Assembly (NCBI GenBank): GCA_963812045.1
Contig: CAWETF010000005.1
Location: 747,696 to 811,695 of the forward strand
Origin: an uncultured delta proteobacterium
GTDB taxonomy: Bacteria; Desulfobacterota; Syntrophia; Syntrophales; Smithellaceae
Length of the DNA: 64,000 nt
Direction: 5' to 3'
In this document: positions 36,001-39,000 of the stretch, piece by piece
Position numbering within the stretch: the first letter of the stretch is position 1
Layout of the letters: each line of letters starts with the position of its first letter
Position numbers: made by a program

Positions 36001-39000
36001 CAAAGTATCCAGAGTAACGTCGCAGATACGCGTCGAAAAAATAATCAGAGGCAGAAGAACAAATTTAAATATCTCCGAATTGAGAAAAGCTGCGTCCATT
36101 TTCTCTCTTTCTTTTGAGTGAAATCTCTATTTTTACAAATATATCTTTGAGCCTGTGGAGTTATTGAAAAACCCCTTGTTTAGTGGCTGTTCAAAAATGT
36201 TCAGATGCAAGGCGCGCAAAAACCGAACCGCGAGGCGTATATTTACATACGTTGAGCGGCGCGGTTTGCAGCGCAACACAGCAGATGAGCGTTTTTCAAC
36301 AGTCCACCCCCCGTCCGATTATTTCCCCTTGAACACCGCCGTGCGGCGTTCAATAAAGGATTGCAGACCTTCCTTCATATCATCGCTTTGCATGACTCTG
36401 GCCACATCCTGATAAATAACTTTTTTCGCGGCCTGCTCGCCTTTCTCTTCCGCCAGACGGGCATTCTGCAGAATATTGCGGACACCTAGGGGTGCTGCGC
36501 TTGCCACCTTCCGCGCCAGTTCCATCGCCTTTTCCAGTTGCTTGCCCGGCTCGGTGACATATTGCACCAGTCCCATGCGGTAGGCATCCTCGGCTGTCCA
36601 CTGATCGCCGGTTAAAAGATAGCGCATCGCGTTGGACCAGCCGATATCTCTGGCCAATCTGAATGTCGCTCCTCCGCAGGGGAAAAATCCGCGACGCACT
36701 TCCAGCATGGCAAAACGCGTATCGGATGCCGCCACACGGATATCCGCGTTGAGCATAACCTCCGGACCCCATGTAAAGCAATAACCCTGCACGGCAAAAA
36801 TAATCGGCTTGCGGCAGCGTTTCTCATTCATCATATAAAATGGATCAATTTCATTTTCACCGCCCAGAGGAAAGCCTACGCCATTGCTGAAAGCGTCCGA
36901 CCAGTCGGTCAGCTCCAGACCCGATGTAAAATGCGGACCGTTGGCATAGACGACCCCCACCCACAAATCGTCGTTGCGATCGAGTTCATAGTAGGCGCGC
37001 GCCATCTGCGTGTACATTTCGCGCGTCATGGCGTTGTATTTCTTAGGCCGGTCAAGTTCAATGAGCATGATGTGCTCTTCTGTTTTAATATTGATTGTCA
37101 TAGCAGGTACTCCTTATATTTTTTCTGATTGGAAGTATAAGTAAAGGGATGCTTCGTGTCAACGGAAGAATTTTGATTGTTACAAATCTCAATCGCCTTC
37201 CATCTGATTCACAATCCAGTCGGCTTCCCTATAAAACAATCCATAACCGTTCATCATATTTTTTACATTTACAAATCTAATCCGTGAATCCTCGCTCCTT
37301 CATCTTTTCCGGATTTCTGAAAAGCGCCATACCTGTTTTCATTTTCCGTAATCCAAGTTTCCCGTAAAATTCTTCCTTGCCCGGTCTAGCGTATAAAATG
37401 ATATTACATCCGTGCAGTCGCTCCAAAATCTTTTCCATAATCATCCTGCCGATACCCATCTTCTGGAACTCGGGAACAACCGCCACGTCATAGACTGCCG
37501 CCTGGTAAGCGCCATCGGAAAGAGCCCTGCCAAAGCCCATCAGCTGAGAATCCTTATAGACAAATACAACCGTGTGGCTGGCTTCAAACGCTTTTTTATG
37601 CACATCCGGTTCCTCATACGCCATTCCAACTTTCTTAAGCGTTTCCGAAACCAACTTCCAGTCCGTTTTGGAACAGTCGTAGACAATATTTAATTCCATC
37701 CGGCCTCCTTTTAATAAACCGATCTGCAATCGATTCCCAGTTCCGTGCAATCTTTTGCTATTATCTTTCCAATGTCTTTAAAATATTTATGGGTATTTTT
37801 ATCTTTCCAACCATGTATTTCATAAATGCGGTCTGCATGAAAATAATTCATCCGGTCGTAAAGGATGTAGTCAACCTTTCCTGCCAGTTTTTTGATAAGA
37901 TTTTCAGCCTCAGGAAGAATCGGCGCGATCATGACATACGTCCTGATGCCGTTTCGATGCAATTCTCCGACGGCTTCAAGGCGTTTTTCAACAGGCGACG
38001 CGTAGGGTTCGAATATTTTTCTTATTTCATCATTTGCCGTGGTGATGGAAAGCCCGACTTCGATATCTTTCATTTTTTTGAATATATCAATATCTCGGAC
38101 AACAAGCGGGGAGCGCGTCTGAATCACAATAGGCCAGTTGTTTTGCTCCAGTATTTCCAGACATTTCCTTGTAAGTTTGTATTTCGCCTCCAGCGGCTGA
38201 TATGGATCGCAAACACCGCTCACCCATATTGTTCCTATTCTTTTCTTTTTTATTTCCTTTCTCAACAAATCTGGAGCGTTGATTTTTACATCTACGAAAT
38301 CGCCCCACGGTTCTTTATGCCCGGTGAACCTTTTCATGAACCGGGCATAACAGTAAGAACACGCGTGCTGACACCCGACATACGGATTGATGACATAGTT
38401 ATAAATCCTTGACGGCGAAAGAACGGATTTGGAATGAATTTCTTTTATCTTCATTTTTTATATAAACTAACCAAAAGATTACCCGCCAGCGGAACGAGGA
38501 TCAGGAGGATTTGTTTGTTGGGTATTGCAGCCATGAATTATTTTCTCTGCAATCTCATCCGTCAGATTCATAATATCGTCGCGCTCTTTAAAGTCATATG
38601 GTTTGCAGATATAGTCTGCATGAATTATAAGGACATCATCGATAGAGTCTGCATGAATTATAAAGATATCACTGAATTCGAGTTTCCTAAACAGCACTTC
38701 AAATCTTCCATATATTGCAGTATGCCGGTTTTTAGAGGCTCCTTGGGTCTGAATGAATACCAACTTTTTCCCTGGCGGCAACCGTGAGGAATGAGGGTTT
38801 GTTTCATAATCGGGTTTCAGGAGTGAAAACAACCGGGATTCAATAATGGACATATTCTCGGCTACATCTCCCTCATAGACTCCTGTAGAAAGGATAAGGA
38901 CATCGCATTTCATCAGGGAGTCGAATACCGTCATCATATCATCCTGGATAACACACTTGTCAGTCGTGGTTTTGCAGGACATGCATTTCTTACAACTTTT

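Follow-up and report, generated by a model that had tools for sequence, protein, structure and literature searches.

The window analyzed here, 64,000 nucleotides of contig CAWETF010000005.1 from an uncultured member of the Smithellaceae, contains four copies of an intergenic repeat of around 120 nt. The conserved feature of this repeat is one long imperfect hairpin on one defined strand (the GGCUGUUC strand, hereafter the structured strand), not a palindrome per se. Pairing in this hairpin is strand-specific, its apex of G·A and G·U (G·T in DNA) pairs is nearly invariant, and RNA and DNA folding parameters both favour the structured strand. The repeat is dispersed, differs in occupancy between orthologous spacers, maintains its structure on the same strand, shares its core with copies in other phyla and sits close to stop codons in a polar manner. 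The best-supported assignment is that of a structure-dependent interspersed repeat of the REP, MITE (for miniature inverted-repeat transposable element) or ERIC kind.

Three of the copies (1 to 3) had been described in an earlier note on this DNA, and both a repeat search and a covariance model of the family (R1, see below) recovered them at the same positions and strands (Table 1). In the repeat search, 36180-36303 paired with 59468-59591 in inverted orientation (93% over 124 nt), and 36185-36308 with 61052-61175 at 81%. Pairwise identities were 92.6% for copies 1 and 2, 80.5% for copies 1 and 3 and 76.2% for copies 2 and 3 (up to 78% in another estimate), in such a way that the 85-95% given earlier for all three holds only for the first pair (93%), copy 3 being 76-81% identical to the others. 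The similarity of the three copies fades within about 4 nt of GGGGCTGTTC...GAACAGCCCC, their flanks are unrelated, and the chance expectation for a 38-mer of the element in the window is 0. The termini, CTGTTCAAAAA and TTTTTCAACAG, do form the 11-bp inverted repeat with one mismatch that had been reported, extended by GGGG/CCCC, so the element is a non-coding unit within the 50-500 bp range with short terminal inverted repeats and sharp borders. A 5' extension, which repeats the terminal motif a third time and adds half of a small CCCC/GGGG hairpin, is present in about half of the A-type copies according to the flank profile.

The gene context that the earlier note had drawn was borne out by Pfam, which identified enoyl-CoA hydratase, DUF5698/DUF2179, SET, QueH and RuvB genes and a DUF4760-like open reading frame (ORF) around the copies. 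The structured strand of copy 1 is antisense to both flanking genes, and its 3' end lies 14-16 nt from the stop of the enoyl-CoA hydratase (crotonase) gene (36319-37101, minus strand). Copy 2 is located between the stop of the SET-domain gene (59639) and the start of queH (around 59441), with orthologous copies in L034 and L073 (loci from other genomes that were compared with the window carry L numbers). On the minus strand, the TCAACA at its 3' end, 16 nt and a flanking TATAAT make up a promoter-like arrangement directed toward queH, a would-be hybrid promoter facing outward that is a consensus match only. For copy 3, also with an orthologue in L073, the boundary given by the covariance model (61171) places the 3' end 4 nt from the ruvB stop (61176), and its stem shows compensatory changes relative to copies 1 and 2.

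The earlier description of a local family of three copies was right about the copies themselves and too narrow about the family, since the window holds a fourth one and the superfamily extends over at least five phyla. Copy 4 was caught by an apex pattern with 20 specified bases (rough by-hand expectation of about 1e-6 in 64 kb). It lies 24 nt past the stop at 53476 of a 738-aa ORF, the next gene starting at 53272, and has the apex CGAGGCGTAT..ATACGTTGAGG, G-C pairs alternating with tandem GA loops, and a degenerate 3' terminus. Model R1, which was not trained on it, gives a local match at 53378-53404, and the copy aligns over its length with other copies of its subfamily (C). With the filters of the covariance model off, no further copies beyond these four were found in the window.

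Table 1. Positions of the repeat copies, their parts and other features in the window and in compared loci.
Feature	Sequence	Position	Strand	Remarks
Copy 1 (subfamily A1)	window	36185-36302	+	Rod-forming repeat of about 118 nt; R1 137.1 bits (+) and 36.9 bits (-)
5' extension of copy 1, GTTATTGAAAAACCCCTTGTTTAGT	window	36160-36184	+	From the flank profile
Apical core of copy 1, GCGAGGCGTAT-N6-ATACGTTGAGC	window	36230-36257	+	G·A/G·U helix and loop of variable sequence
Copy 2 (subfamily A1)	window	59469-59586	-	R1 129.3 bits; sense to flanking genes
Apical core of copy 2	window	59514-59541	-	Identical to that of copy 1
Copy 3 (subfamily A2)	window	61051-61169	+	R1 133.5 bits; antisense to flanking genes
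Apical core of copy 3	window	61097-61124	+	Identical to that of copy 1
Copy 4 (subfamily C)	window	53330-53451	-	R2 112 bits, partly by construction (copy 4 is among the 12 R2 training sequences); sense to flanking genes
Accessory cargo	window	59587-61050	-	SET-domain gene (59639-60241) and DUF4760-like ORF (about 60228-61166), by Pfam
Promoter-like sequence at copy 2	window	59448-59475	-	Consensus match only
pan motif (RF01749)	window	19368-19442	-	41.8 bits, above gathering score
Tandem 31-nt repeat	window	38608-38671		90% identity, 33-nt period
Two-copy AT-rich 61-nt repeat	window	34745-34805 and 42543-42603		77% identity
Y-shaped unit	L011	2724-2905	+	Saccharibacteria
Y-shaped unit	L050	about 1830-2040	-	Saccharibacteria
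Y-shaped unit	L056	about 500-710	-	Saccharibacteria
Copy on viral-collection contig	L001 (IMGVR_UViG_3300029288_001298)	8754-8837	-	Core plus two add-on hairpins
IS200/IS605-type TnpA gene	L106	1320-1980		Between ruvB and ruvA
Pseudo-copy of ruvB 3' end	L073	2443-2500		About 60 nt, including the former stop
cGTTGAAAAAGaaagCTGTGC	L112	5027-5055		Right after the ruvB stop
Island with small membrane ORFs	L045	1352-2148		About 790 bp; compared with window 15187-15193

Each copy in the window folds as a single rod, and the claim that the whole element can form one long imperfect hairpin was confirmed by folding both orientations. For copies 1 to 3, the minimum free energies as RNA were -54.1, -50.6 and -52.6 kcal/mol on the structured strand (z-scores from -6.3 to -7.2, with -6.6 for copy 1) versus -42.5, -39.8 and -42.4 kcal/mol on the complement (z around -4.4). 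With DNA parameters this asymmetry was kept but was small (-27/-26/-27 versus -24/-22/-24 kcal/mol). When the arms were folded separately, z-scores of +0.97 (left) and -0.01 (right) were obtained; the arms do not fold alone, so the element is not a REPIN-type doublet. Within the apex the pairs run C-G, G·A, A·G, G·U, G·U, C-G, G-C, etc., an uninterrupted helix on one strand whose counterpart on the other is a 4x4 mismatch. A purine-rich internal loop, 5' RAGGNG opposite 3' CRAC, is also conserved.

Covariation was tested with a model-based alignment of 114 copies, taking as reference the full hairpin of copy 1 with its 42 pairs. Standard pairs occupied 93.2% of the cells, compared with 86.6 ± 0.2% after shuffling and 33-44% when the partners were slid, and changes on both sides were found at 33 of the 42 pairs. 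Compensatory cells numbered 244, versus 50 ± 6 in the shuffles and 41-84 in the slid controls, these cells not being independent events because the alignment had been fitted to a structure related to this one and common ancestry links many of the copies. The slid controls, together with the stems of other phyla described below, argue that the covariation signal is real. Outside the apex, which was excluded from this count as invariant by ascertainment, G·U/U·G cells (290) outnumbered A·C/C·A cells (81). Since most elements are antisense to the abutting gene, deamination of the exposed non-template strand would give the opposite bias, so that this asymmetry between G·U and A·C is more likely to be selective.

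In order to estimate the size of the family, the apical core (GCGAGGCGTAT-N4-10-ATACGTTGAGC) was scanned in one genome per species. At least 110 loci were found, against about 0.3 expected by chance in our own estimate, and among the matches listed about 97 loci came from about 41 assemblies labelled Smithella, Smithellaceae or 'Syntrophaceae'. Single metagenome-assembled genomes (MAGs) contained at least 6-8 exact-core matches, and 88 of 117 core matches folded as a single rod of about 122 nt. The covariance model R1, based on an 88-sequence alignment, scored the three A-type copies of the window with 137, 134 and 129 bits on the structured strand and with 37, 37 and 28 bits on the complement, and it also detects further copies without the exact core. 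A second model, R2, was made from 12 copies of the C and Methylomirabilota types, none of them A-type. It nevertheless detects the three A copies of the window at 29-35 bits (E from about 1e-7 to 6e-6), supporting a common descent of the subfamilies, as well as copies from Peregrinibacteria, Nitrospira and Saccharibacteria.

The superfamily is modular: it comprises the subfamilies A1, A2, B and C, and at least five phyla contain members of it. A1 includes copies 1 and 2 of the window, and A2 includes copy 3 and is distinguished by outer and middle stems with compensatory changes in blocks; B has the apex UGAGGCGUAC...GUACGCCGCAAC, and in C single G-C pairs alternate with tandem GA/GA loops. 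After collapsing orthologues, 69 independent sites remain for the A and B types and 79 when the C type is included, and more than 125 copies are found in other genomes at unrelated sites. The less biased samples, namely the four copies in the 64-kb window and three copies in around 85 kb (an estimate) of the ruvB loci of relatives, give a density of about one copy per 16-30 kb. This corresponds to roughly 100 copies per Smithellaceae genome, so that the tens to hundreds anticipated in the earlier note are plausible. Its claim that the family was unreported also held within the sources searched. No Rfam 15 family matched any copy in gathering mode on the window and 14 distant loci, E-value mode on four regions gave only noise (E ≥ 0.1), plasmid and phage collections gave no match by blastn in distant mode, and literature searches by sequence string, organism or repeat terms did not find the repeat. 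The window itself is syntenic with contigs of Smithella sp. SMAG_U14785, at about 80-86% nucleotide identity, which places it in the Smithellaceae (order Syntrophales, phylum Thermodesulfobacteriota).

The unit of about 120 nt is at times accompanied by the 5' extension, of about 25 nt, or by small add-on hairpins. These modules, GTCCCGTACTTGATACGGGA, CCATGGTGCCCTTCAGGGTA and TCCCGATTTTATCGGGA, are placed on one arm or end and give a BIME/BOX-like mosaic, and the end module GTAAAAGCCTTTCGGCTTTTACCGGCAAGGAA is able to sit on either side of the element. Modules were seen in L001, L012, L059 and L063, in L003, L021, L044, L064, L084 and L099, in L037 and L104, and also in L002, L004, L014, L023, L032 and others. 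The copy in L001, which consists of the core and two add-on hairpins without the usual outer stem, was the sole genuine copy on a viral-collection contig in two scans. These scans also returned three identical chance matches inside coding sequence, which were used as a negative control.

Outside the Smithellaceae, copies were detected in Saccharibacteria (L005, L011, L050, L056), in one MAG of Peregrinibacteria (L066, L111), in Methylomirabilota (L035, L043), in an unclassified high-GC MAG with Methylomirabilota-type copies (L041, L061), in Nitrospira (L090, L091) and in a divergent 'delta' MAG (L089). Around 47 nt on each side of the apex differ in sequence and in G+C content (up to 75%) yet pair into the rod, and the purine-rich loop is kept. 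When the apex was fixed and the flanks were shuffled, 10 of 13 exact-core copies from other lineages gave z-scores of -6 to -10. Three long-form Saccharibacteria copies gave -1.5 to -2.7, one more L041 copy gave -2.4, and the chance match in viral coding sequence gave +0.3. The host contigs are large (776 kb in Saccharimonadales, 1.76 Mb in Nitrospira) or compositionally distinct (GC of about 0.74 in Methylomirabilota-type copies), so mis-binning is not the explanation. The element is multi-copy in the Peregrinibacteria MAG, where the two copies are near-identical in different contexts, and in the Methylomirabilota-type, high-GC MAGs, with second copies lacking the exact core in L035 and L041. 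For the L005 copy, a coding explanation (atpE) was considered and ruled out by translation and Pfam.

In L011, L050 and L056 the rod forms one arm of a conserved Y-shaped unit of around 190 nt, located in unrelated gene contexts, which also comprises a stem that closes it and another hairpin (…AGCAGnnGCGG-loop-CCGC…CAGGCnGCnGC). This unit gave no match in Rfam and is a candidate for a stand-alone non-coding RNA.

The position of the element with respect to genes is markedly polar. At the 69 independent A and B sites, 37 of the genes on the 3' side were convergent with the structured strand, against 15 that were co-oriented (p = 0.003), and the median gap to the gene was 3.5-7 nt on the 3' side versus 52-93 nt on the 5' side. 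A second test, independent of start-codon calls, was carried out on the 79 sites that include the C type, considering ORFs of at least 80 codons. A stop codon was found at 10 nt or less from the element's 3' end at 35 of the 79 sites, and from its 5' end at only 4 (p = 3e-7), with a modal gap of 2-3 nt. Copies 1 (14 nt) and 3 (4 nt) of the window obey this polarity, copies 2 and 4 having the minority orientation, and it is also found in Nitrospira L091, with a gap of 3 nt, and in Saccharibacteria L005, with a gap of 0 nt, where the element is set between genes for ATP-synthase subunits. The stop at the junction is the native one of the gene, as RuvB ends in GEIF and its stop codon with or without the element. 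Stop-codon identity as the target was discarded, since the TAA/TGA/TAG counts at junctions (14/11/7) mirror the background (421/373/183). The flanks show negative GC skew (C-rich) on the structured strand at 50 of the 69 sites, which puts this strand on the leading-strand template in most cases, the direction of replication and the orientation of genes being confounded.

The neighbours of the element are ordinary genes, in Smithella and in other phyla alike, such as those for histidine kinases, sigma-54 regulators, PolA, LepA, ABC-F proteins, AhpC and ATP-synthase subunits. Orthologous spacers are polymorphic for the presence of the element, which fits mobility. A stretch of 26 bp in the window (10002-10028) is empty where L045 has 182 bp containing the 5' extension and an A1 copy. 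Behind the ruvB stop there is an A2 copy in the window and in L073 and an A1 copy in L106 and L126, and behind the stop of a sigma-54 regulator gene there is an A2 (L027), a B (L074, L084) or a C copy (L033), always in the same orientation.

We consider it somewhat probable that the element is a non-autonomous repeat that propagates by means of a single-stranded hairpin recognized by a trans-acting factor. The fold, adopted as single-stranded DNA during replication or as RNA, would be the substrate of an enzyme encoded elsewhere, and only copies that keep the fold would propagate, which would explain the compensatory changes between subfamilies; these would derive from master copies. The repeat would multiply within Smithellaceae genomes and would be exchanged or inherited across several phyla. 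Its copies, which appear and disappear at orthologous spacers, land or survive 0-10 nt after a stop codon, their 3' end facing the gene. The mRNA of this gene would then bear the weaker complementary hairpin right behind its stop, and the inserted hairpin may act in cis on the upstream mRNA as a terminator, a stabilizer or a brake on the terminating ribosome, an action documented for E. coli REPs near stops.

A number of observations weigh against propagation of this kind. The target-site duplications that the earlier note had proposed to look for were absent from the flank profile of 45 canonical copies and from the three window copies, and between the filled site of L045 and the empty one of the window only an ambiguous TTGAA repeat was seen within diverged flanks, such insertion comparisons being drawn from diverged relatives. 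Neither a transposase, reverse transcriptase or HUH gene beside the copies (around 125) nor a cognate autonomous insertion sequence (IS) sharing the ends of the element was found in about 0.8 Mb of element-bearing loci. When the 1,814 ORFs of these loci, taken as pieces of about 8 kb around the copies, were clustered all against all, the only families obtained were housekeeping ones and spurious ORFs spanning the element, and tblastn with the TnpA proteins of IS200 and IS608 returned a single IS200-like gene, in L106, the third query being a RAYT-like consensus that is not a reliable probe. Orthologous copies are 92.6-93.4% identical versus 79-84% for adjacent genes (copy 2 shows 92.6% with its orthologues versus 79-82% for queH, and copy 3 shows 93.4% with L073), and this higher conservation points to host-level purifying selection or concerted evolution, not to neutral junk. 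Furthermore, relative to the gene with the abutting stop the structured strand is the antisense one, its placement mostly on the leading-strand template is opposite to the IS608-type expectation, and we know of no DNA-level mechanism that senses in-frame stop codons. An antisense structured strand and the lack of stop sensing at the DNA level leave a tension in every reading of the data.

The IS200/IS605-type TnpA gene of L106 is 31% identical to IS200 TnpA, and it was rejected as the mobilizer because its terminal hairpins are unrelated to the repeat family. Also, a suspected IS end that seemed to replace the 5' half of the element in L013, L047 and L088 turned out to be an orthologous truncated copy upstream of phosphotransferase system genes.

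The sharp docking behind stops would also be expected from a cis-acting RNA module selected by the host to control the upstream gene, mobility being only its arrival route, an alternative that we regard as unlikely. Such a module could be a (bidirectional) terminator, a 3' stabilizer, an RNase III site or a brake on terminating ribosomes. The modal gap of 2-3 nt, the 35 to 4 polarity and its equivalent in Saccharibacteria and Nitrospira are in its favour, as are the re-occupation of one stop codon by different subfamilies and the conservation of the copies above that of flanking genes. In the A type, moreover, the hairpin lies between A5 and U5 tracts in both directions, the layout of bidirectional terminators. 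The U-tract is nonetheless absent from the C-type, the Methylomirabilota-type and some Nitrospira copies, and a consensus terminator scan flagged none of the copies. The strand under structural selection is not the one present in the mRNA of the gene, the flanking genes have no common function, and there are relatives without the element at the same genes. A precedent is provided by the REPs of E. coli: according to PMC12306157, which summarizes Liang, Rudd and Deutscher (2015), a large share of them have a stop codon within some 15-20 nt, and terminating ribosomes are stalled, and expression lowered, only by those at less than 16 nt from it.

The strand-specific covariation with abundant G·U pairs could reflect instead multi-copy genes for a structured RNA, which we find quite doubtful. 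As predicted from sequence, the structured strand would give a rod RNA of about 120 nt, convergent to the abutting gene and belonging to a new class of non-coding RNA, whose tandem-GA/GU apex and purine loop would bind a conserved protein, the RNA serving as sponge, guide or scaffold. This proposal agrees with the larger fold asymmetry under RNA than under DNA parameters, with non-Watson-Crick motifs conserved across five phyla, with optional hairpins on one arm, as in RNA variable regions, and with the Y-shaped unit of three Saccharibacteria, which occurs in unrelated contexts like a stand-alone RNA gene. It is at odds with the lack of a conserved promoter upstream of the structured strand, with the presence of both orientations relative to flanking genes, and with the number of copies, as it would be unusual for one RNA to be encoded by a hundred dispersed genes. 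In DNA hairpins, too, tandem G·A and G·T pairs are stable. Neither the RNA genes nor the cis-acting module exclude mobility, with which both are compatible.

As a tentative proposal, which we would not call probable, the repeat may be the founding example of a widespread class of rods of about 120 nt, with a G·A/G·U apex and a RAGGNG/CRAC loop, a putative conserved partner protein, and targeting to, or selection at, stop codons in fixed polarity. If so, it would involve a new mobility mechanism tied to the 3' ends of genes or to translation termination, or a new family of RNAs that link termination to mRNA fate, present in Saccharibacteria as one larger RNA and proliferating as copies in Smithellaceae, Peregrinibacteria and Methylomirabilota. 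As identities of the element, group II intron domain V, SRP RNA, 6S RNA and a sigma-54 promoter were discarded for a wrong layout of loops and bulges or wrong spacing, with no Rfam match.

The spacer between ruvB and queH is a hot spot for accessory genes. Both genes follow each other directly, with a spacer of 45-60 bp and no element, in L114-116 and L120; the spacer is of about 770 bp without element in L112. In L113 it is occupied by a BrnT/BrnA-like pair, in L126 and L034 by a single element, and in the window and L073 by two elements in inverted orientation. In the window, copies 2 and 3, inverted and with their 3' ends outward, bracket the SET gene and the DUF4760-like ORF. The cargo elsewhere consists of lipoproteins in L126 and L073 and a 234-aa, perhaps cyclase-like protein in L034. 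A second hot spot, from the sigma-54 regulator gene to engB (L027, L033, L074, L084), shows a similar behaviour.

Some of these loci bear further marks of rearrangement. In L073, a pseudo-copy of the ruvB 3' end stands beside the 5' end of the queH-side element, and the real end of ruvB adjoins the other copy, an inverted one, at its 3' end; this layout suggests duplication or inversion events carrying flanking DNA. The L112 sequence cGTTGAAAAAGaaagCTGTGC is like the first bases of the element with an internal deletion and may be the footprint of a lost copy. The island of L045 sits at a gene end, has a C-type element at its edge, and is flanked by an 11-bp direct repeat, TCACACTTAAA, which includes the stop codon.

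Recombination sites delimiting exchangeable cassettes, like attC or pdif, with pairs of elements bracketing accessory genes and mediating their entry into hot spots, would account for such arrangements, and we judge this improbable. It would fit the inverted pairs with outward 3' ends around different cargo, both between ruvB and queH (window, L073) and in the sigma-54 regulator/engB spacer (L074, L084), the C-type copy at the edge of the L045 island with its direct repeat, and the duplicated ruvB end of around 60 nt beside one L073 copy. Most copies, however, are solo in short spacers without cargo, the pairs are inverted and not direct as site-specific integration would leave them, no integrase or recombinase lies nearby in the examined loci, and the box order of attC (AAC start, GTT end) is reversed here, with no arrays. 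Finally, a segmental duplication, or chance palindromes or look-alike terminators, for which only the 1.5 kb between copies 2 and 3 could be adduced, is refuted, as homology stops at the element borders, the chance expectation is nil and the copies of other genomes lie at unrelated sites, in agreement with the earlier view of a dispersed intergenic family.

Interspersed palindromic repeats such as REP, ERIC and Correia shape transcription, mRNA decay, translation and genome plasticity, and to our knowledge nearly all described families are genus-specific and come from cultivated Proteobacteria and Firmicutes. By analogy, the element would work most like the stem-loop repeats of the REP/ERIC type. 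With the REP/BIME/REPIN-RAYT systems it shares the character of high-copy extragenic palindromes, conserved stem mismatches and mosaics with small motifs. REPs are recognized as single-strand hairpins, as this element may be too, and their mobilizing gene is rare and located elsewhere. REPs are often contiguous with ORF ends, touching or providing stop codons (PMC3733652), and stop-proximal copies affect translation (PMC12306157). The REP unit is of 20-40 bp with a GTAG or CGTC tag at one end (PMC3733652), whereas the unit here is a single rod of about 120 nt, and no such tag was seen at either end on reading the three window copies and the 88-sequence alignment, no dedicated motif search being made. 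A REPIN consists of two inverted REPs, each folding alone, unlike the arms of this element; there is no RAYT in the examined loci, and the family spans five phyla.

ERIC (also IRU) of enterobacteria and Vibrio is similar as an imperfect palindrome of about 127 bp in transcribed intergenic regions, in either orientation, with long RNA hairpins that alter mRNA fate as a feature of its own and no known transposase. It belongs to different taxa, its consensus presumably has no sequence similarity to the element, and we know of no report of ERIC with an apex conserved across phyla or polar docking at stops. The Correia/NEMIS elements of Neisseria and RUP of Streptococcus, which are MITEs of 100-150 bp, resemble the repeat in terminal inverted repeats, dispersal, insertion polymorphism and hairpins in transcripts, and composites of two MITEs can also bracket cargo. 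MITEs, on the other hand, have target-site duplications (TA for Correia) and a cognate IS, neither of which was found here in the loci examined, and only their termini are constrained, whereas in this element covariation extends over the entire stem and conservation is highest at the apex. From the earlier comparison with MITEs and ERIC, therefore, the dispersed palindromes, the terminal inverted repeats and the occupancy polymorphism are retained, and target-site duplications and an adjacent transposase are missing. Strand-specific covariation, a non-Watson-Crick apex and polar docking do not follow from an ERIC/Correia-like designation.

Integron attC sites (the V. cholerae repeats are of about 120-126 bp) are imperfect palindromes of similar length that function in folded form, as a single strand with defined polarity whose unpaired bases are conserved, beside the 3' ends of ORFs and at cassette boundaries. 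Nevertheless, in attC R''(RYYYAAC) precedes R'(GTTRRRY), the ends being conserved and the centre variable, and here the order is reversed (CTGTTCAAAAA at the start, TTTTTCAACAG at the end) and the centre is best conserved. Moreover, attC sites form co-oriented arrays by intI, in contrast to the solo copies among housekeeping genes, in both orientations and with no integrase nearby. Bidirectional intrinsic terminators share with the A type an A-tract, hairpin and U-tract directly after the stop, but the stem here is of about 50 bp, has conserved internal loops and is homologous across loci and phyla, and the missing U-tracts of several subfamilies and the negative terminator scan also set it apart.

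The repeat was found in uncultivated syntrophs important for methanogenic propionate and alkane degradation. Its structured core is recognizable across at least five phyla, including the candidate phyla radiation, as expected of a protein-recognition module, and so offers a handle for finding a new mobilizing enzyme or RNA-binding factor. The sharp polar placement at stop codons makes the question of REP-like gene-end positioning testable, and the element labels hot spots at which accessory genes are exchanged between conserved ones. Besides, the copies create spurious ORFs and can break MAG assemblies, and annotation would improve with the covariance model.

Three other features of the window were noted. 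The pan motif was the sole Rfam family in it, and the tandem 31-nt repeat and the two-copy AT-rich repeat are both unrelated to the hairpin family (Table 1).

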